DNA of 43,803 bases from a virus (Duplodnaviria > Caudoviricetes). The DNA is taken from positions 1-43,803 of IMG/VR virus record IMGVR_UViG_3300048598_000512; one strand, 5' to 3'. Of the stretch, positions 493 through 42,973 are shown one piece after another. The notes under the pieces were generated by a model. The model worked only from the letters and a program-made list of their open reading frames with translations. It had not been told where the DNA came from and ran no database searches. The translations under genes were made by a program, and so were the position numbers. The number at the start of each line of letters is the position of its first letter. Position 1 is the stretch's first letter.

Positions 493-1310
493 GCGCGGTT
501 TTCCTTCAGCTCGTTGCTTCCCTCACCGCCGATCCTGTTCAGCTGCTGAAGCAGATCCAAGCGCCTGAATATGAGGTGAATCGTCCCCGCCGAATCGAAC
601 CATGCCAGCTTGAAATACTCCGTCTCCATTCCCTTCTGCCCAGCGCGGCGCGCCTGCTCCATCTGTAGGCCCAGATTGTTGTCGGCCTTCGGAAGCCCCT
701 TGCCGTCGAGCACATGGAACACCTTGTTCAACTCGTTGAAGCGCTGCTTTACGTCCAGGTCCATGTAGCTGGAACTCCAGGAATACCCCCACGACAGAAT
801 GACCTTGCGTTGCACGCCGGAGCAGTCGGCATTCGTCTTGTGCCGGTTCGCCCAGCTGGTTCCCGGCCGGAACAACTCCCACACCGCGCGCGCCGCGCCC
901 TTGAAAATTTCGTCGCTGTTCTCGGCCAGCCCCTGAAGCGTGGCGACCACGTTGGCCAGGTCAAAGGGCGGCGTCTTGTGCTCCTCGAACATCTTGTGCA
1001 TGCGCTCGCGGTCCGCCGGGCTCATCATGGCCCCCACGCCTGTCTGCGCCAGGGTGTACTTCCAGAACCCCTCCTGGATGGCCAGTTGAGCCTTTGCCGC
1101 TGCGTCTTCCGGCTTTCCGTAGGTGATCCAGCTATCCACGCGGCGGAATCCGTAGGCATCAGGCAGCACCGATGCATAACCTCCGCACGCGACCTTCATC
1201 AGGGCTTGCGCCGCGAAGAGCAGGGTAATGCCCTGCTGGGCCTGGGCCTGGATAGCGTCGTGCTGTTCGACCAGCGTGGCGATGGTCTGCCGGGGCATCA
1301 GCTCGTTCAC
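489..1310 (-). CDS. DUF4942-like protein
   Basis: 273 aa; motifs PPFDLANVVATL, ELNKVFHVLDGK, ETEYFKLAWFD..GTIHLIFRRLDL recalled as typical of DUF4942; coupled to the methyltransferase gene. Confidence 0.7.
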   Translation of the reverse strand: MNELMPRQTIATLVEQHDAIQAQAQQGITLLFAAQALMKVACGGYASVLPDAYGFRRVDSWITYGKPEDAAAKAQLAIQEGFWKYTLAQTGVGAMMSPADRERMHKMFEEHKTPPFDLANVVATLQGLAENSDEIFKGAARAVWELFRPGTSWANRHKTNADCSGVQRKVILSWGYSWSSSYMDLDVKQRFNELNKVFHVLDGKGLPKADNNLGLQMEQARRAGQKGMETEYFKLAWFDSAGTIHLIFRRLDLLQQLNRIGGEGSNELKENRA

Positions 1311-3334
1311 AGCGCCCCCTCGGCGGCCATGAGCCCGGCCACGATGGGCTGCACCCAGATCGGCGTGTTGCCCATGGCGAAGGTCTCGCCGCTCCAGGTG
1401 AGCAACAAGACCTGGCCCATGGCCCCGGCGATGGCCCGGGCGGCCGGGGGCGGCACGGCGTTTCCGATGCGCTCCCGCCAGTGCATGTCCGACAGGCCAT
1501 CCAACTCCAACTGCTCCTCCACATCCACCAGCCCCTGCAGGGCGGCCAGCTCGAACGTGGTGAAGGGCCGGTGCCAGGTGCCGTCCAGGGCCTGGATCAC
1601 GGCCACGAGGTTCTGCCGTGGCTCGGGCATGCGGGGATCAGCCACCGACCATCGGCCGTTGTCGGCCCCGGCAGAAGCGGCCACGGCCCCGCATGCGGAA
1701 TCCCAAGGCACCACGCCGAAGTGGCCGCCGCCGTTGTAGTGCTCGCGCTCCTGGCCGCCCCACATGCGCGGGTCGGCGACGGCGAACGCGCCCTGGCCAG
1801 TGGTGCTTCCGGAAATCACGGTGCCCGCGGGCTCGGTGAAGTCCGTCACCCCGTACTTGCCGAAGCAGTTGCTGGGCATCCTGGGGTCGGCCACGGCCAG
1901 GCCCCCGGCGCTCGGGCCACCACCGCCGGTCACGGCCGGGGAGGTCTCACCGAAGCGCACCACGCGGAAGATGTTGTTGTGCCTCACGCCGTCAAAGCGC
2001 GGGTCAGCGACCGCGTAGGGACCGCCCCCGGGCGCGCTCTGGCCGCTCACGGCCCCCATGCTCTGGTCCCAGCCGCGCACGCCATACTGACCGTACTCGT
2101 GGCCCACGAAGCGGGGATCGGCGACCGCAAAGGCTCCGTTCGTCGGGAAGCTCTCCCCGGCCACGGTGCCCGTGGGGCTTTCCCAGGACCGGACCCCGAA
2201 GGCCCCGGTGCGCAAGTCCAGGCCACGAGGATCTGCCACGGAGAACTGCCCATTGGTCGGGCCTGTCCGGCCCCGGATGGCCCCAGCATTGTCGGCCCAG
2301 GGGATGAGCCCGAGGAAACCATTCTGGCAGTGGCCACGCTCAATGCGCGGGTCGGCCACGCTGAACCGGCCGCACGTGGGTCCGGCGTTCCCGGTGACGA
2401 CTCCGGACGGGTCGGTCCAAGGCAGCACGCCCAGGGCCCCGTCCTGCCAGCTGCCAGCGGGCACGATGCCGAAGTCGGCCAGCTGGCCGTCCTCGACCCG
2501 CAGACGGTTCAGGCTGCGCCAGTCGCTCCCGGCCTCCACGAAGGCCAGGCGCAGCCACGTGCGCCACTGCAAGGCGGGCATGCGGTGCATCGGGCCTGCG
2601 GCCGGGTGGCCGGGCATGGGCATGGGGCCCAGCACGTCGCCCACGGCGCGCAGGGGGCGCTTGCGGGGCTCGTAGAGGTAGGGCGGCACCTTGGCCTGGT
2701 GCCGGGCCACCAGAAGGAAGCGCTTGCGGCTCTGGGCCAAGCCGCCAAGCTCTCCGCAGTCGTGCGTGGTCTCGGCCACGGCGTAGCCGTAGGAGCGCAG
2801 GAGCGCGCCGATCTGGTCCAGCAGGTGCCGGCCGCGCGTGGCGATCCTGGGCACGTTCTCGAACACGATCAGCTCGGGCGGCCCGTCGTCGTGGTCGGCC
2901 CAGGCCTCCAGCATGAGCCAGACGCCGCGCAAGGTCAGCCGGTTGAGCGCCTGGTACTTGCCGGTCTTGCTCCGGGTCTCGGACAGCAGGCCCGAGAAGC
3001 CCTTGCAGGGCGCGGACAGGAACACGATGTGCGGGCGCTCGCCGCCAGCTGCGCGGCGGATTGCATCCGGCCCGGCCTCGCGCCAATCGGCCGGAGGCTC
3101 ATGGCCGTGGAAGGCCAGGTACTGCTCGCGGTCGAACATATCCAGGCAGGTGCCCGGCACCCCGGCCATGCGGCCGAAGTCGGCGATGGCGGCCCGGTCC
3201 ACGTCCACGCCGCCGATGCAGCGGAAACGGGCCTGCAGGTTGCCTACGCGGGCTTCGCCCTGGTTGAACCCCTTAGCGCCGCCGCCCAGGCCGCAGAACA
3301 GGTGGAAGTGCTTGATCTCGGCGAAGGAGGTCAT
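1307..3334 (-). CDS. C5 DNA cytosine methyltransferase with repeat-expanded variable region
   Basis: Motif I LFCGLGG, IV SAPCKGFS, VI FENV, VIII QSRKRF, IX RPFTTFELAALQG, X IGNAVPP; start moved to ATG at 3334 (MTSFAEIK), which overlaps the upstream stop. Confidence 0.93.
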   Translation of the reverse strand: MTSFAEIKHFHLFCGLGGGAKGFNQGEARVGNLQARFRCIGGVDVDRAAIADFGRMAGVPGTCLDMFDREQYLAFHGHEPPADWREAGPDAIRRAAGGERPHIVFLSAPCKGFSGLLSETRSKTGKYQALNRLTLRGVWLMLEAWADHDDGPPELIVFENVPRIATRGRHLLDQIGALLRSYGYAVAETTHDCGELGGLAQSRKRFLLVARHQAKVPPYLYEPRKRPLRAVGDVLGPMPMPGHPAAGPMHRMPALQWRTWLRLAFVEAGSDWRSLNRLRVEDGQLADFGIVPAGSWQDGALGVLPWTDPSGVVTGNAGPTCGRFSVADPRIERGHCQNGFLGLIPWADNAGAIRGRTGPTNGQFSVADPRGLDLRTGAFGVRSWESPTGTVAGESFPTNGAFAVADPRFVGHEYGQYGVRGWDQSMGAVSGQSAPGGGPYAVADPRFDGVRHNNIFRVVRFGETSPAVTGGGGPSAGGLAVADPRMPSNCFGKYGVTDFTEPAGTVISGSTTGQGAFAVADPRMWGGQEREHYNGGGHFGVVPWDSACGAVAASAGADNGRWSVADPRMPEPRQNLVAVIQALDGTWHRPFTTFELAALQGLVDVEEQLELDGLSDMHWRERIGNAVPPPAARAIAGAMGQVLLLTWSGETFAMGNTPIWVQPIVAGLMAAEGAL
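1631..2440 (-). repeat. Seven tandem ~35-45 aa protein repeats ending in VADPR inside the methyltransferase
   Basis: Approximate pattern GxxGVxxWxxxxGxV...G.FxVADPR occurs seven times in the translation. Confidence 0.9.
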
Positions 3335-6586: not shown

Positions 6587-7108
6587 CTACCAGGGCACAG
6601 CGTGGCCCCGGTGCTTCTTCCACTCCTCCAGGTAGAGCCGGGCCAGCTCGGGCGAATCCAGAATCAGCAGGTTCTCGGCGTTGCTGGCCTCAGCCGCCCC
6701 GGTGAAGTTGAAGCTGCCCGTGGCCACGGCCTGGCCATCCAGCACCATCACCTTGTTGTGGGCGATGGCATGCTTCGCGTCGATGTAGACCGCGGCGCCG
6801 GAGTTGGCCAGGCGCTGCCCCTGGCCGCCCTTGGCTCTGCGCTGCCCACGATCCAGGACCGCTTCCACGTGCACCCCGCGGCGAGCTGCCCGGGCCAGGG
6901 CCTCAGCAATGGGTGCGCTGGTGAAGCTGTAGGCCAGGACGAAGATGGACTCGCGCGCAGCGTCGACCCGGGCCACCAGGGCCTCGGTGGCGCCGCCACG
7001 GGGCGAGAAGTGGATCTCGGCCGGCGTGTCGTGAAGGGTGAGCTCGAAGGCCTGGGCCGGAGTGGCCAGGCAGAAGGCGAGGATGATGGAGAGAACCGGG
7101 CTGCGCAT
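6587..7108 (-). CDS. Exported phospholipase D-family (Nuc-like) endonuclease
   Basis: Single HxKxxxxD motif (HNKVMVLD), TGSFNFT, NAEN, FSPRGG, AYSFTS; signal peptide ending PAQA-F. Confidence 0.92.
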   Translation of the reverse strand: MRSPVLSIILAFCLATPAQAFELTLHDTPAEIHFSPRGGATEALVARVDAARESIFVLAYSFTSAPIAEALARAARRGVHVEAVLDRGQRRAKGGQGQRLANSGAAVYIDAKHAIAHNKVMVLDGQAVATGSFNFTGAAEASNAENLLILDSPELARLYLEEWKKHRGHAVPW

Positions 7109-14366: not shown

Positions 14367-16550
14367 ATGGGCGACGTCGTCAACTTCTTCGACTTCCGGG
14401 ATGCACCACCCCAGCAGGCCGACACGGCCGGGGCCCGGTCGTTCACTGACCCGGTCGGCGAGTTCCAGGACGCGCTCGATGCCGCCGGGTACGGCCGGCC
14501 GGACATCAGGGCAGGGGGCATTGAGCGCTTCTCCGTGCCCGGCGACAAGCCGGGCAGCAAGAACGGCTGGTTCATCTTCTACCCGGACGGCATCCCGGCC
14601 GGGGCCTTCGGCTCCTGGAAGACCGGGGACTCGCAGGAATGGTGCGCCAGGGCCGTGCACGACATCAGCCCGGTCGAACGCGAGGCCAACCGCCGCCGCA
14701 TGGTCGAGGCCATGGCCAGGCGTGACGAGGAGCTGGCCAAGAGCCGGGTGCTCGCCGCCGAGCGCGCCGCGTTCCTCTGGGAGCGCGCCAAGCCTGCCCA
14801 CGCGCACGCCTACCTCTCCACCAAGGGCGTGGCCGCCCACGGCCTCAAGGTCGACGAGCACGGCAACCTGGTCGTGCCGCTCATGGATCGCACCGGCAAG
14901 ATCCACTCGCTGCAGTTCATCAAGCCGGACGGTGCCAAGCTGTTCCTCACCGGAGGCGCCAAGAAGGGCAACGCCTTCTGGATTCCCGGCGACCCGGCCA
15001 AGGCCGTCTACATCGCCGAGGGCTACGCCACGGCCGCCAGCGTGCACGCCGCGACGGGTGCCACGGTGTTCGTGGCCTTCGATGCGGGCAACCTGGGCCC
15101 CGTGGCCCAGGAGGTGCGCGCCACGATGCCCACGGCGCGCATCATCATCGCCGCGGACAATGACGCCTGGACGGACGGCAACCCGGGCCTGAGCGCCGCG
15201 CAGGAGGCCGCCATGGCCGTCGGCGGATCGGTGGTCATGCCGAGCTTCAAGGACGTGGCCACGCGACCGACAGACTTCAACGACCTGCATCACCTGGAGG
15301 GCCTGGACGTGGTGACAACGCAGATCACCGGGGCCAGCATGCCCGGGCAACGGCCCCTTGATGTCAGCGCCTGGGGCGTCGACAGCTTCACGGGCGAGGT
15401 CCCGGAGCGCCGCTGGCTTGTTGAGGGCGTGCTCCCCATGTCCACGGCCGTCATGCTCGCCAGCATGGGCGACGCGGGCAAAGGCATGCTCACCCTGGAC
15501 CTGGCGCTCAAGGTGGCCGGCGGCGACGGCAGCATGTTCGACTTCAATTCCGGCTCCAAGGGCTGGTGGGGGCACGACGTGCTCACCCAGGGCGAAGCGG
15601 TAATCATCACCGCAGAGGACGACCGCGACGAGATGCATCGCCGCATGGCGGGCATGGACCCCAAGGGCAAGCGGCGCGAGGCCGCGCGCGGGAAACTGTT
15701 TGTGGTTCCCCTGCCGAACTACGGCGGCCCCATGCCGCTCGTGGTCATGGGCAAGCACGGGCCCGAGGCCTCCGAGTCATGGTGGCGCCTGCGCGACGAG
15801 CTCGCCAAGTTCCAAAACCTCAAGCTGGTCAACCTCGACCCGCTGGCCAGCTTCATTATGGCCGACCTGAACGCCGACCCCATGGTCGGAGCCTTCACCA
15901 CGGGCCTATTCGCCTCCCTGGCCAGCGAGAGCGGGGCCGTGGTCATGCTCGCGCACCACATGCGCAAGGCGGGCGGCAAGGACGGCAAGCAGACGCTCTC
16001 CCCGGCGGCCATGCGCGACGCCGTGCGCGGCACCACGGCCCTGGTCGACGGCGTGCGCTGCCTCATCGGCCTAGCCGTCGAGGAGAGCTCCAAGGCGCGC
16101 AAGGTCTGCAAGAAGCTGGGCGAGGAGTGGGCCCCGAACAAGGTCTTCCGCGGGGCAGTCTGCAAAAGCAACGGCCCGGCTGACCGCGGCATGCCCACCT
16201 TCGTGCGCAACGCCAACGGGCTGCTGGTGTGCCGTGACGCCGAGCTGCAAGGCTTCGCCAGCGAGAATGACCTCCTGGGCACCCTGCAGGCCGACATCGC
16301 CAAGGCGGCGAAGGATGGCCGCCCGTTCACCAAGTCCGGCAAGAACGGCGTGCACGAGCGCATCGAGGAGCTTTCGAACGAGCTGCAGGACATCAGCCGC
16401 GACCGCGTGCGCAAGCTCGTCGACCAGCTCCTCACCGACAAGGCCATCGTCAAGCCCAACTACAAGGGCCGGATCTGCGCCTTCCTCGACGTGCCCGACG
16501 GTCCTTTCAGCATGGGAATCGGCGAATTTGCCATGGGGTACGCCGAATGA
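14367..16550 (+). CDS. Primase-helicase (TOPRIM plus RepA/AAA_25 helicase)
   Basis: SLQFI, IAEGYATA, AADND, TDFNDL (TOPRIM); GDAGKG, TAEDD, LDPL, AHHMRK, RGTTALVD (RepA-type helicase). Confidence 0.92.
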   Translation: MGDVVNFFDFRDAPPQQADTAGARSFTDPVGEFQDALDAAGYGRPDIRAGGIERFSVPGDKPGSKNGWFIFYPDGIPAGAFGSWKTGDSQEWCARAVHDISPVEREANRRRMVEAMARRDEELAKSRVLAAERAAFLWERAKPAHAHAYLSTKGVAAHGLKVDEHGNLVVPLMDRTGKIHSLQFIKPDGAKLFLTGGAKKGNAFWIPGDPAKAVYIAEGYATAASVHAATGATVFVAFDAGNLGPVAQEVRATMPTARIIIAADNDAWTDGNPGLSAAQEAAMAVGGSVVMPSFKDVATRPTDFNDLHHLEGLDVVTTQITGASMPGQRPLDVSAWGVDSFTGEVPERRWLVEGVLPMSTAVMLASMGDAGKGMLTLDLALKVAGGDGSMFDFNSGSKGWWGHDVLTQGEAVIITAEDDRDEMHRRMAGMDPKGKRREAARGKLFVVPLPNYGGPMPLVVMGKHGPEASESWWRLRDELAKFQNLKLVNLDPLASFIMADLNADPMVGAFTTGLFASLASESGAVVMLAHHMRKAGGKDGKQTLSPAAMRDAVRGTTALVDGVRCLIGLAVEESSKARKVCKKLGEEWAPNKVFRGAVCKSNGPADRGMPTFVRNANGLLVCRDAELQGFASENDLLGTLQADIAKAAKDGRPFTKSGKNGVHERIEELSNELQDISRDRVRKLVDQLLTDKAIVKPNYKGRICAFLDVPDGPFSMGIGEFAMGYAE

Positions 16551-40303: not shown

Positions 40304-40890
40304 TGTGGAGTCTGCTCAAAGCCTTCGGCGGGTCGGCCTGGTCCTGGCTGACCGGCAACCTGACGTTGGTGCTCATCATCCTGGCCCTGGCCGGGACCCT
40401 GGGCGGGGTCTGGTGGGGCTGGTCCCACGGCTCAGCCAGCGCCCGCAATGAGCTGCAGGCCGAGTACCAGAAGAACCTGGCCGACGCCACGCGCGAGGCC
40501 ATGACCAAGCAACAGGCCGCCCAGGTGTTCGCCAATGGCCTGGCTTCCGAGCTCATCACCACGAAGCGCGCCATCGAGGCGCAGCGCGCGAGCCTGCGCG
40601 GGAGGATCGTCTATGTCACGCGTGAGATTCCTGCTGATTGTGGCCTGCCTCCTGATGCTGTCCGCTTGTGGAACGCGGCCCGGCGCCTGTCCGCCCCCGG
40701 TCTGTCCCAAGCCGGTGCCCCCGGCCGAGCTGATGGACCGGCCGCCCCCGCCGCCTCTTCTGGCCCCGGGCAGGGCAACGCAACCGTAGCCGACGCCATC
40801 GCCGACCACGTGGACTACGTGAGCTGGTGCGAAGGCGTGGTGGCCCAGCGAGACAGGCTCCAGGACCTGATCAGGGGGTGGACGCAATGA
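40300..40890 (+). CDS. Inner-membrane spanin (Rz-like)
   Basis: N-terminal TM, coiled coil, AAGGAG SD, follows the endolysin. Confidence 0.75.
   Translation: MMWSLLKAFGGSAWSWLTGNLTLVLIILALAGTLGGVWWGWSHGSASARNELQAEYQKNLADATREAMTKQQAAQVFANGLASELITTKRAIEAQRASLRGRIVYVTREIPADCGLPPDAVRLWNAARRLSAPGLSQAGAPGRADGPAAPAASSGPGQGNATVADAIADHVDYVSWCEGVVAQRDRLQDLIRGWTQ
40613..40789 (+). CDS. Outer-membrane spanin lipoprotein (Rz1-like), embedded in an alternative frame
   Basis: GGAGGA SD; MSRVRFLLIVACLLMLSAC lipobox; Pro-rich mature part. Confidence 0.82.
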   Translation: MSRVRFLLIVACLLMLSACGTRPGACPPPVCPKPVPPAELMDRPPPPPLLAPGRATQP

Positions 40891-41108
40891 GCGACATCGT
40901 CGACCAGGCCCAAGAGGCCGAGATGCAACTGCGCGCCGAAGCCCTGGACCGCATGCGCGCGCGGCCCCCGGAACCGGGGCCCCTGTTCATCGGTGGAGTG
41001 GCGTGTTGCCTGGACTGCCAGGAGCCGATCCTGTCCGCCAGGATCAAGGCCAAGCCCGGCTGTAGCCGATGCGTGACGTGTCAGAGCGTGCAGGAAGAAA
41101 GAGGCTGA
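40887..41108 (+). CDS. TraR/DksA C4-type zinc-finger protein
   Basis: MSDIVDQAQE (DxxDxA), CLDC..I..AR.KA.PGC.RCVTCQ. Confidence 0.9.
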   Translation: MSDIVDQAQEAEMQLRAEALDRMRARPPEPGPLFIGGVACCLDCQEPILSARIKAKPGCSRCVTCQSVQEERG

Positions 41109-41119
41109 GCTTGAGACCG

Positions 41120-41243
41120 CCAGGGGGGCCGTGAGGCCCCCACTGGCTTGGAGTGGAGAGGCAGGGGCGCGCGAACGCCCCCACTGGCCCGGTGTTCGAG
41201 CATCGGACCACGGCCGAAACCGCTCTCCGGCCCGTGCACGGGT
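41120..41243 (-). ncRNA. Candidate cloverleaf antisense RNA upstream of com
   Basis: Stem 41155-41160/41223-41228 closes three hairpins; flanking hairpins at 41120-41146 and 41231-41242; minus-strand promoter upstream. Confidence 0.5.
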
Positions 41244-41249
41244 TGCCGG

Positions 41250-41279
41250 GGTATAGCAGCGGTCAGGCACTACCGTCAA
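41250..41279 (-). promoter_or_regulatory. Candidate sigma70 promoter antisense to the late operon
   Basis: TTGACG-N18-TATACC with TG extended -10 on the minus strand. Confidence 0.55.
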
Positions 41280-41286
41280 AGGTATC

Positions 41287-41475
41287 ATGGAGAAGGAGAT
41301 TCGCTGCGGGAAATGTAACCGTCTTCTGGCCAGGGGCGAGGCCCTGGTGCTCACCATCAAATGCCCGCGCTGCGGGCAGTTCAACCACGTGAGGGCCCAG
41401 AGCCCCGGCCGAGAGCTGCATGGACAGCCGAACGCCCTGGAGGCTCAATGTGGCTCTACATCCCCAAGGACTTGA
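41287..41475 (+). CDS. com: Mu Com-like zinc-finger translational regulator
   Basis: EIRCGKCNRLLA...IKCPRCGQFN; stop overlaps the start of a DNA-modification gene as in Mu com-mom. Confidence 0.88.
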   Translation: MEKEIRCGKCNRLLARGEALVLTIKCPRCGQFNHVRAQSPGRELHGQPNALEAQCGSTSPRT

Positions 41476-42329
41476 TGGAATCGCCCTCTGCGCCGGAGCG
41501 GGAGGGCTCGAACTCGGCCTGCACATCGCCGAGCCCGGATACCGGTCTGTTTGCTTCGTCGAGCGGGACGCACACGCTGCGGCCACTCTCGTGGCTAGGA
41601 TGGCAGACCAGGCCCTGGATGAAGCTCCTGTGTGGTCTGACGTGCGATCCTTCGACGCTCGCCCGTGGCGTGGCTGCGTGGATATCCTCACTGCGGGATA
41701 CCCGTGCCAGCCGTTTAGCTTCGCCGGAAAGCGCCTGGGCGAAGCCGACCCCCGGCACCTCTGGCCGGACATCGCCCGGATCATCGGCGAGCTCGCCCCC
41801 GAGTGGGTCTTCTGCGAAAACGTCGTCGGCCACCTTCACATGGGATTCCCGGATGTCGCCCGAGACCTTGAAGGCCTGGGCTACCGGGTTGCTGCGGGCG
41901 TGTTTTCGGCGCGAGAAGTCGGCGCGGGCCACCATCGGCGGCGACTCTTCATCCTGGCCCACGCCGACGGCGGTCTGGTTCAAGTACGAGATCGGAGTGA
42001 CGGTGGGGGCAGGGCGCCTGAAGTTCGAGGCGAAGCACCAAAACCAGCTGGGCGGCGCGGCGATCTCCTGGACCCTGTTCTGGAACCTGCTGCACTCGAC
42101 CCTGGGCATGGATCTGGTGAGGAGCCTCGCGATCTACCCCTCTTCGCCCCAGACCCAGGTGACATTGCGGCCTGGTCCGACGTCTTCCTGCGCGACCCTG
42201 AACTTAAACCCGCGCTTCCTGGAGATGTTGATGGGGTGGCCGGATGGCTGGACCGACAGCGCCTCGCCGGTAACGGGGTTTGCCCTCTGGCTGCAGCGCT
42301 CGCGTTGCGCACTCTCTCGGCTGTGCTGA
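41448..42329 (+). CDS. Overlapping-frame C5 methyltransferase beta polypeptide (motif IX), EcoHK31I-like
   Basis: Open frame across the alpha gene with WPTPTA and LNPRFLEMLMGWPDGWT; ATG at 41448 after GGAGG; true start could be internal. Confidence 0.7.
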   Translation: MWLYIPKDLMESPSAPEREGSNSACTSPSPDTGLFASSSGTHTLRPLSWLGWQTRPWMKLLCGLTCDPSTLARGVAAWISSLRDTRASRLASPESAWAKPTPGTSGRTSPGSSASSPPSGSSAKTSSATFTWDSRMSPETLKAWATGLLRACFRREKSARATIGGDSSSWPTPTAVWFKYEIGVTVGAGRLKFEAKHQNQLGGAAISWTLFWNLLHSTLGMDLVRSLAIYPSSPQTQVTLRPGPTSSCATLNLNPRFLEMLMGWPDGWTDSASPVTGFALWLQRSRCALSRLC

Positions 42330-42361
42330 TGGGCTTGCCTGACGACGGCGCGATGTCCTAG
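41450..42361 (+). CDS. C5 DNA methyltransferase, alpha polypeptide (motifs I-VIII and X)
   Basis: ALCAGAGG, VERD, DILTAGYPCQPFS, ENV, HHRRRLF, RLAGNGVCP; GTG at 41450 after GGAGG (upstream ATG at 41420 also in frame). Confidence 0.9.
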   Translation: MALHPQGLDGIALCAGAGGLELGLHIAEPGYRSVCFVERDAHAAATLVARMADQALDEAPVWSDVRSFDARPWRGCVDILTAGYPCQPFSFAGKRLGEADPRHLWPDIARIIGELAPEWVFCENVVGHLHMGFPDVARDLEGLGYRVAAGVFSAREVGAGHHRRRLFILAHADGGLVQVRDRSDGGGRAPEVRGEAPKPAGRRGDLLDPVLEPAALDPGHGSGEEPRDLPLFAPDPGDIAAWSDVFLRDPELKPALPGDVDGVAGWLDRQRLAGNGVCPLAAALALRTLSAVLMGLPDDGAMS

Positions 42362-42367
42362 AAACAG

Positions 42368-42396
42368 AGGGGGCAGGGTTGACCTGTCCCCTTTTT
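42368..42396 (+). terminator. Intrinsic terminator at the end of the prophage late operon
   Basis: AGGGGGCAGG-GTTGA-CCTGTCCCCT-TTTT. Confidence 0.75.
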
Positions 42397-42479
42397 CACA
42401 GCCAGGTCGTGAGCAGGGGGAACGGTGGGGAAACGTCGAACTCGATGCGCGCAATCAGCCCCTTGTGGTCTGCAAGATT

Positions 42480-42500
42480 TAAAGCCGTATCCCTGCGGCT
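42480..42500. other. Right prophage-host junction (att site), approximate
   Basis: ComM motif NPCPCGY reads KPYPCGY; ComM similarity begins abruptly here. Confidence 0.7.
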
Positions 42501-42973
42501 ATCTGACCGACGACCGCCACGTGTGCTCCTGCCAGCCGCTGGCCATCCAGCGCTACCGTTCGCGCATCTCCGGCCCGCTCATGGACCGCATCGACCTGCA
42601 GGTGGAGGTACCGGCCGTGCCCTACGAGGACTTGCGCGCCCCGCGCGGCGGGCGCAGCTCGGCGGACATGCGCGCGGGCATCCTGCGCGTGCGGGCCGTG
42701 CAGGCCGAACGCTACCAGGGCGAGCGCATCCGCACCAACGCGGACCTCACAGGCTCGCTTCTGGAACGCTGGTGCGCCGTGGGCGAGGCGGAGCAGAAAT
42801 TTCTGGAGCGGGCCGTGCACCGCCTGGGCCTTTCGGCCCGGGCCTACACGCGCGTGCTGCGCATCGCCCGCACCATCGCGGACATGGAAGGCCGGGAGCG
42901 CCTGGAGATCGGCCAGCTGGCCGAGGCCATCAACTTCCGCACCATGGACCGGGTCAACGCGCCGGAGGGATGA
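42491..42973 (+). pseudogene. comM: 3' part of comM/yifB (Mg-chelatase-like AAA+ helicase), interrupted by the prophage
   Basis: PCGY..C.C....RYRSRISGPLMDRIDL, LGLSARAYTRVLRIARTIAD, EAINFR; N-terminal two thirds absent. Confidence 0.92.

Follow-up and report, generated by a model that had tools for sequence, protein, structure and literature searches.

Can one stretch of phage DNA, read in two frames behind a single ribosome-binding site, supply both chains of one DNA methyltransferase? The question is raised by a locus in a provirus of the class Caudoviricetes, IMG/VR record IMGVR_UViG_3300048598_000512 (89% complete, left end missing; positions 1 to 43,803, and this whole stretch of 43,803 nucleotides (nt) is called the window below). 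One Shine-Dalgarno (SD) sequence precedes overlapping ATG and GTG codons, which open two long frames that we call beta and alpha. The initial annotation, made from the sequence alone, had read them as two methyltransferase subunits, with the small gene com crossing their starts in the third frame. All of these elements are indeed in the sequence: GGAGG followed by ATGTG, a 293-aa (amino acid) frame with WPTPTA and LNPRFLEMLMGWPDGWT (beta aa 253-269), a 303-aa C5-methyltransferase frame, and a com gene ending at 41475. Our analysis supports, as the probable reading, a two-chain C5-methyltransferase in which a catalytic alpha and a likely DNA-recognizing beta are served by one SD and are likely controlled by Com. 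The features of the pair are as follows.

41439..41443, +, Shine-Dalgarno GGAGG, 4 nt before the ATG and 6 nt before the GTG (DtoStart 12/14)
41448..41452, +, overlapping starts ATG (beta) and GTG (alpha), ATGTG
41448..42329, +, beta coding sequence, ATG start, TGA at 42327-42329, 293 aa (MWLYIP...)
41450..42361, +, alpha coding sequence, GTG start, TAG at 42359-42361, 303 aa
41486-41506, +, alpha motif I
41580..41630, +, beta aa 45-61 block (RPLSWLGWQTRPW..L), selected in the beta frame as judged by the codon endings of alpha
41693-41719, +, alpha motif IV (PCQ)
41816-41824, +, alpha motif VI (ENV)
41930-41950, +, alpha motif VIII
41955..41969, +, beta WPTPT motif (WPTPTA, aa 170-175), start of the likely recognition region, single copy here
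42204..42242, +, beta motif IX-like segment LNPRFLEMLMGWP, labeled by position
42269-42280, +, alpha motif X (GNGV, aa 274-277)

Alpha and the homologue set

Alpha belongs to the C5 DNA methyltransferases by its catalytic motifs I, IV, VI, VIII, and X and by its large-domain fold. Residues 11 to 172 match PF00145 (E 3.5e-32), and in a Foldseek comparison the alpha model (predicted local distance difference test, pLDDT, 76.9) aligned with M.HaeIII (E 1.4e-12, root mean square deviation 2.5 over 169 columns) and also matched the large domain of M.HhaI. Motif I reads LCAGxG, with Cys at the usual Phe position; Phe is the customary residue at that point of motif I in C5-methyltransferases. The pLDDT falls below 50 at aa 183-224 and 256-270, and the linker in the small-domain position is empty of fold, disordered, and poorly conserved. 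Other in-frame ATGs lie upstream, at 41420 for alpha and 41361 for beta, on which the initial annotation was silent; we ruled them out as starts because they are not conserved among homologues.

We collected 344 loci including the window, 295 of them complete from motif I to motif X. The 49 dropped loci comprise 29 in which the alpha frame ran past the stored DNA, 4 that missed the motif pattern, and 16 that were short of flank, longer than the stretch searched, or broken. Counts below refer to 208 representatives with <90% identity, 180 of which were found via alpha alone. We divided the junctions into class A (NTGTG, beta start first) and class B (RTG-N-ATG, alpha first and beta 4 nt later). 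Two loci carry insertions: an extra stretch past motif IX (L177) and a transposase-like open reading frame (ORF) fused in frame (L173). A distant clade (L362-L381) has 25-43% identity to the beta of L152, and its beta still opens MWI(L/I)P just before motif I.

The second frame is a selected coding frame

We asked how often the beta frame would stay open by chance. Resampling the synonymous codons of alpha with realistic usage gave, for the window alone, a probability of 0.02-0.05 for the whole beta frame and 0.10-0.25 for codons 1-172. Homologues are far more informative. Stops in the beta frame of close homologues would tell against a second chain; between motifs I and X, 204 of the 208 representatives have none (176 of the 180 found by alpha alone), while the third frame of the same loci has a mean of 8.2 stops, and this difference excludes chance. 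From the start to motif IV, 1 beta-frame stop was seen where 279 were expected, a comparison over 198 related loci and hence not a p-value. Ten ordinary genes of the window have 0.7-4.5 stops per 100 codons in the equivalent frame.

The codons of alpha tell the same story residue by residue. Alpha codon endings that are rare in the flanking genes occur exactly where beta requires a given residue: a T ending at Pro60 in 98% (background 10%) and at Thr81 in 99% (7%), and a G ending at Arg50 in 93% (33%), Val48 in 98% (37%), and Ala154 in 100% (38%). The first residues of beta (M-W or M-x-W, L3, P6) are under beta-frame selection as well, and at aa 254-268 the beta-frame motifs are more conserved than alpha over identical bases. 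Beta-frame stops before motif IV are present in four relatives, those in phage K1H, phage Tadhana, a Citrobacter plasmid, and L023. The codon bias covers aa 45-61, upstream of those stops, so beta is selected as a protein from its first codons. Residues 80-179 of beta match phrog_1008, annotated as DNA methyltransferase (E 1.6e-17). The comparative evidence thus indicates that beta is genuinely coding and under selection, and both frames are very probably translated. The M.EcoHK31I-like, two-chain reading of the initial annotation gains from this conservation of both frames.

Two chains probably made from one start site

Next to the SD, the arrangement of the two starts is itself conserved. 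They lie at most 4 nt apart (2 or 4 nt) in 198 of 208 representatives, and beta opens M-W or M-x-W in all 198. NTGTGG is found in 123, with Trp always next in beta and with TTG in 60, GTG in 38, and ATG in 25; the codon before Trp is ATG, GTG, or TTG in every class A locus. Another 75 have RTG-N-ATG, and 10 have neither pattern: several of these have starts 5-7 nt apart, one lacks the GTG, and two are rearranged. An alignment of homologues had been proposed at the outset, to see whether both frames and ATGTG are conserved. The frames are kept; ATGTG itself is limited to those 25 loci, with GTGTG or TTGTG in 98 and RTG-N-ATG in the remainder of the adjacent-start loci. In 77 of the 123 NTGTG loci, the junction GTG is the sole possible alpha start before motif I. 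The alpha RTG of class B, 4 bases before the beta ATG, is not forced by the beta sequence. The com stop moves from -65 to +53 nt, and the junction stays fixed.

SD spacing was then compared among start types, with ties resolved towards 13. DtoStart is 12 in 16 of the 25 ATG-type loci (16 of the 18 with an SD at 10-18); of the others, one is at 11, one at 16, four have a distant best match only, and three have no SD. GTG-type loci have DtoStart 12-15 (33/38), and TTG-type loci 13-14 (52/60). Pooled, start codon and spacing are associated at a p of 2e-12.

The spacing in the window has a direct experimental counterpart. In E. coli, AUGUG is read at the GUG only with a 2-3-nt spacer and mainly at the AUG with 5-6 nt, and both codons are used only with a 4-nt spacer, DtoStart 12/14, where AUG is about 3.5-fold ahead of GUG in vitro; GUGUG is ambiguous from DtoStart 12/14 upward (PMC9841429). 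The window has precisely this 12/14 spacing. Both chains are probably made from the shared start site, as had been proposed from the sequence: the starts are adjacent in nearly all representatives, and the spacing is the one mapped for dual initiation. The accompanying idea of a fixed stoichiometry is kept in part: a shared site would set the subunit ratio, but probably not at 1:1, given the advantage of AUG.

Upstream of class B junctions, a different neighbor is found. The gene is mostly preceded by an adenine/N4-type methyltransferase-like ORF, judged from translations (e.g., L047, L092, and L165). Most class B alpha starts lie a few bases past an upstream stop, and the TGA of the preceding ORF is 1-4 nt before the alpha start in most class B loci, which suggests translational coupling in place of Com. 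In Acidovorax phage Alfacinha1 (OP131590; L345:2501-3634), the junction is TGATGTGG, in which an upstream stop, the ATG, and the GTG overlap one another.

Which chain recognizes DNA

The small domain of a C5-methyltransferase holds the variable region and motif IX (PMC3404938). In the present locus, the models of the separate chains are complementary: alpha lacks order at 183-224, and the ordered part of beta spans 175-293 (pLDDT ~85-90). WPTP units occur once in most class A loci and as tandem arrays of five or more in class B. The beta segment LNPRFLEMLMGWP has no Pfam match and is taken to be motif IX from its position. Gordonia phage Upyo (L348:1000-2269) is a useful comparison. Its alpha stops past motif VIII, and the +1 frame holds WPTP repeats, IX, and X; in gp53 the WPTP array and LNP..W.MG.P run straight into motif X in a single frame. 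Alignment A4 matched Upyo gp53 in hhalign with an E of 8.7e-5. Motif IX is thus missing from alpha and present in the alternative frame: alpha is disordered at 256-270, and the beta segment occupies the place before X in Upyo gp53.

Five loci, L152 (1451-3097), L171, L352, L353, and L355, form a three-piece clade. Alpha ends past motif VIII, and 4-14 stops fill the linker. The beta frame is unbroken and has a long WPTP array; a conserved ATG opens a separate piece of 87 aa (MGNA...GNGV) that holds motif X, and an SD-like GGTG before this piece is seen in four of the five. Recognition cannot depend on the alpha linker in these loci, because the linker is filled with stops and beta and the motif-X piece are intact. 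Beta therefore likely has motif IX and, in addition, the target-recognition region. The initial annotation had seen a motif IX-type segment in beta; this segment is there, but beta probably has the recognition region too.

Com and the leader RNA

Three further features lie upstream of or across the junction.

41287..41475, +, com, Mu Com-like zinc-ribbon translational activator, 62 aa, third frame (PF10122, E 6e-21; phrog_6417, E 4e-18)
41391..41406, +, likely Com-binding RNA box (candidate), GAG(N)2CC-N2-GAG(N)2CC, exact match to the published selection consensus
41415..41428, +, likely Com target hairpin (candidate), GCTG-CATGGA-CAGC, 4 bp, GA ending the loop

The com gene spans the junction, its stop falling 26 nt beyond the alpha GTG. 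Of the NTGTG loci, 98 of 121 have a com-like ORF upstream; of the class B loci with enough flank, 0 of 69 do. This ORF is in the third frame in 93 of the 98 com-linked loci, and in 67 it overlaps the junction. In SELEX (systematic evolution of ligands by exponential enrichment), Mu Com selects a bipartite GAG(N)2CC, and the protein binds a small hairpin whose loop contains GA (PMC6483171). Two exact bipartite boxes occur in the window (the second at 15396) against 0.39 expected, a number reached by 7 of 100 shuffles. The strict SELEX form is present in 11 of 100 com-linked loci. A relaxed form is found in 78 of the 100 com-linked leaders and in 8 of the 23 class A leaders with no detected com; in class B it is found in 0 of 70 loci, and shuffling yields it in ~1%. 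Relative to the com codons, the second box occurs in two phases (53 and 23 loci), so the constraint acts on the RNA. The 4-bp hairpin was picked from alignment A5 by eye. Both sides of each of its 4 pairs vary across 93 distinct com-linked leaders, and 89.8% of cells are paired, against 70.9% in shuffled and 17-52% in slid controls; the stability of the hairpin in the window is ordinary (z 0.36).

Com control of the locus is, from these patterns, somewhat more plausible than its absence, and the early suggestion of a link to Com is strengthened: apart from the eight class A leaders just mentioned, Com-type elements are confined to com-linked loci. Adenine methyltransferases are known in the mom position behind com (PMC3299994). 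A motif of Dam-like adenine methyltransferases lies downstream of the gene in 22 of the 123 class A loci, or 21 of the 98 that have full flank (e.g., L075), which suggests com-controlled cassettes with two modifiers.

Weighing the interpretation

Taken together, we propose the following course of events. A late transcript carrying the lysis genes, traR, and com would include the leader; Com would bind the GAG-CC boxes and the hairpin and turn translation on. At a spacing of 12/14, the 30S subunit would begin at either AUG or GUG, and both chains would be made in a set ratio, with beta probably in excess. Beta would provide the small domain, comprising motif IX and the recognition region, and its conserved N-terminal arm would dock on alpha. 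The dimer may then methylate cytosines of phage DNA late in infection, a likely shield against host restriction, and the enzyme would fill the slot occupied by mom in Mu.

Several observations weigh against this interpretation. A beta stop occurs in four of the 208 representatives, of which three have a lone stop in a beta that is intact elsewhere and one has an insertion, and some ten of the 49 dropped loci are broken. The conservation of GTG in NTGTG loci is not independent evidence, because the Met-Trp of beta forces it. On a FastTree tree, the link between start codon and SD spacing comes down to 3-5 supported independent pairs (sign test p 0.25-1), and tuning of the spacing to the start codon is a lead only. 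The spacing rule derives from E. coli reporters with a strong SD and does not cover UUGUG, the commonest form here (60/123). Folded alone, beta aa 1-135 are of low confidence. Beta has no match among PDB sequences, in Foldseek against the PDB, or among viral models; its best Z in VIA-align against structures is 3.9, which is no match, and Pfam gave 0 meaningful matches in 112 members. Since there is no Pfam, PDB-sequence, or fold match, the roles given to beta rest on position and genetics. RNAalifold found 0 consensus pairs for an inhibitory stem over the start, and the best fold of the window, which pairs the SD and the start, is not unusual (z -0.46); we found no conserved inhibitory structure over the start, and the single translational switch is a presumed step. 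Among sequencing runs, the best share of the locus was 0.18, under a fifth.

Could there be two chains, with beta or alpha starting elsewhere, at an internal Met or by reinitiation past com or the upstream stop, so that the overlap is incidental? The beta of M.EcoHK31I can begin at internal Met 17 or 26 (PMC2836561, PMC3404938), the relatives with beta-frame stops before motif IV would need such a start, and coupling from the upstream stops near class B alpha starts and in the TGATGTG of Alfacinha1 could feed one of the two starts. We consider this unlikely: selection acts in the beta frame on its first residues and on aa 45-61, stops are scarcer than expected between the start and motif IV, a start-like codon precedes Trp in every class A locus, and the junction holds its place while the com stop moves. 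The least credible explanation is that the second frame is an untranslated compositional shadow of alpha in GC-rich DNA. It could draw on the chance values for the window alone and on the Ser/Arg/Pro-rich composition of a beta with no Pfam match, but the stop frequency of ordinary window genes set against none in 204 of 208 homologues, and beta-frame motifs that out-conserve alpha at aa 254-268, speak strongly against it.

Programmed frameshifting would make a single polypeptide, with motifs I to VIII from alpha, recognition and IX from beta, and X from alpha again. The functional blocks do alternate between frames in canonical motif order, Upyo has the recognition region, IX, and X in one +1 frame, and the alpha linker is untranslated in the three-piece clade. 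Yet frameshifting leaves the selection on beta aa 1-170 unexplained, in the three-piece clade the motif-X piece is preceded by an SD and ATG of its own, and M.EcoHK31I functions as separate chains (PMC2836561, PMC3404938). If only beta were read there, 371 stops would be expected in the alpha linker of 193 loci in which it is open; these have zero linker stops by construction, yet only five loci with a stop-filled linker were seen. We regard frameshifting as very improbable. Somewhat less remote, though still improbable, is a beta made at the shared site that acts as a regulator or stabilizer, with alpha alone binding DNA, perhaps at low specificity like the FluMu-type Com-linked adenine methyltransferases. 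The M.EcoHK31I papers place the recognition domain in alpha (PMC2836561, PMC3404938), which also counts against our assignment; enzymes in the mom slot can be nonspecific (PMC3299994), and beta matches no solved recognition domain. Against a purely regulatory beta, the alpha linker is disordered, poorly conserved, and lost in five loci, and the overlapping region of beta is ordered, with WPTP units that vary in number. We thus retain a shared start and a DNA-recognizing beta as the preferred reading.

Comparison with known systems

M.EcoHK31I is a natural alpha/beta C5-methyltransferase that recognizes YGGCCR; as in the window, its alpha has motifs I-VIII as well as X, and the motif IX chain is encoded in another frame of the same DNA (PMC2836561, PMC3404938). 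The present locus differs from the published description in that beta spans the whole gene, starts at the ribosome-binding site of alpha, and likely has the recognition region; it is a prophage gene behind com, with no restriction partner seen. A plasmid search with the K1H beta listed 28 records, none named EcoHK31I. The M.EcoHK31I beta starts internally and has about 176 aa. Among nested phage pairs with an existing annotation, K1H ORF29/ORF28 and Paenibacillus phage Tadhana gp54/gp55 (PHROGs 363 and 1008) share a nested +1 frame with WPTP and LNP..W.MG.P; their beta must start internally, because of the stops upstream in the beta frame. M.AquI (CYCGRG) is split after motif VIII (PMC3404938). 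Its second chain, like that of Upyo gp54/gp53, has the recognition region and motif IX, but that chain includes motif X too and the first one ends past VIII, whereas here X is in alpha.

For the start site, the closest likeness is to the E. coli work with one SD and two start codons in different frames, at the 12/14 spacing of the window (PMC9841429). The class B RTG-N-ATG has the geometry of Thermus rpmH/rnpA, AUGGAUG behind one GGAGG, the only prior bacterial case of ambiguous initiation cited in that work (PMC9841429). The ambiguous E. coli sites in pqiA and tamA give peptides of 10-15 aa of unknown use (PMC9841429); here, in contrast, both products are ~300 aa, conserved, and likely subunits of one enzyme. 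With Mu com-mom and FluMu-type loci, the window shares a com directly upstream and overlapping, GAG(N)2CC boxes, a GA-loop hairpin, and a position at the late end of a prophage (PMC6483171, PMC3299994). It differs in that the modifier is a split C5-methyltransferase and the phage has terminase, portal, and contractile tail genes; the translation-inhibition stem of Mu has no counterpart shown here. In the open-access literature, with subscription journals and REBASE outside the search, we found no phage methyltransferase with a whole-gene overlap or a shared start, nor the dual-initiation spacing match, Com-type RNA elements at such a locus, or the three-piece form. The two-frame heterodimer is already known from M.EcoHK31I; the evidence for a shared start and the three-piece clade come from the present analysis.

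Position in the prophage

The alpha/beta locus is the final gene of the late strand and is followed by one further feature.

42366..42394, +, likely intrinsic terminator of the late transcript, a hairpin and U-run past the alpha stop (-22.3 kcal/mol, z -4.3)

This hairpin is absent from the list of a consensus scan, and a scan of 41050-42500 found no sigma-70 promoter. Directly past it, 42425-42973 (+) is the 3′ part of a comM/YifB Mg-chelatase-family gene, and the prophage likely integrated into comM. On the other side, a DksA/TraR zinc-finger gene (40887-41108, +) lies between a spanin and com. A comparison of 45 window proteins with PHROGs gave matches that include a repressor, helicase, primase, terminase, portal, sheath, baseplate, holin, endolysin, spanin, and DksA/TraR. 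It found no match to a transposase, and we dropped the idea of a Mu-like transposable phage. Nor was there a restriction endonuclease family among these proteins; the neighbors are com and the terminator, then the comM/YifB fragment, with no adjacent endonuclease of the type II restriction-modification kind, and the description of the enzyme as an orphan holds as far as tested. The early region has a second C5-methyltransferase, read in a single frame (1307-3334, -; PF00145, phrog_116), with 11 stops in its +1 frame; the adjoining 489-1310 has a weak match to a methyltransferase PHROG. Near the repressor, an ORF at 6587-7108 (-) matches phrog_12711 (unknown function) and presumably resembles a phospholipase D-family nuclease. 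An exact look-up in a protein collection found neither window alpha nor window beta; the beta frame of one homologue (L001) is present.

Discussion

Our answer to the opening question is that one SD probably does serve two long frames here. For the phage family as a whole, we advance a broader picture tentatively, at somewhat less than even odds: ribosomes would be partitioned at one ambiguous start with a spacing-tuned ratio, Com would gate both chains, recognition would be modular and lie in an unannotated frame, NTGTG and RTG-N-ATG would be interchangeable, and one clade would have gone to three chains.

If true, this would be natural ambiguous initiation in ~200 divergent loci, with two long products that likely form one enzyme. 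Ambiguous initiation that coregulates two useful proteins would then be directly testable, including in cultured phages, as Acidovorax phage Alfacinha1 and Synechococcus phage Yong-M2-251 both carry the pair. Annotation has so far followed one frame or the other: GenBank calls the Alfacinha1 beta the cytosine methyltransferase and leaves the PCQ/ENV frame unannotated, and only alpha is annotated in Yong-M2-251. If recognition lies in beta, the specificity of these phage enzymes would have been predicted from the wrong frame, and the published assignment for M.EcoHK31I would be worth reexamining.

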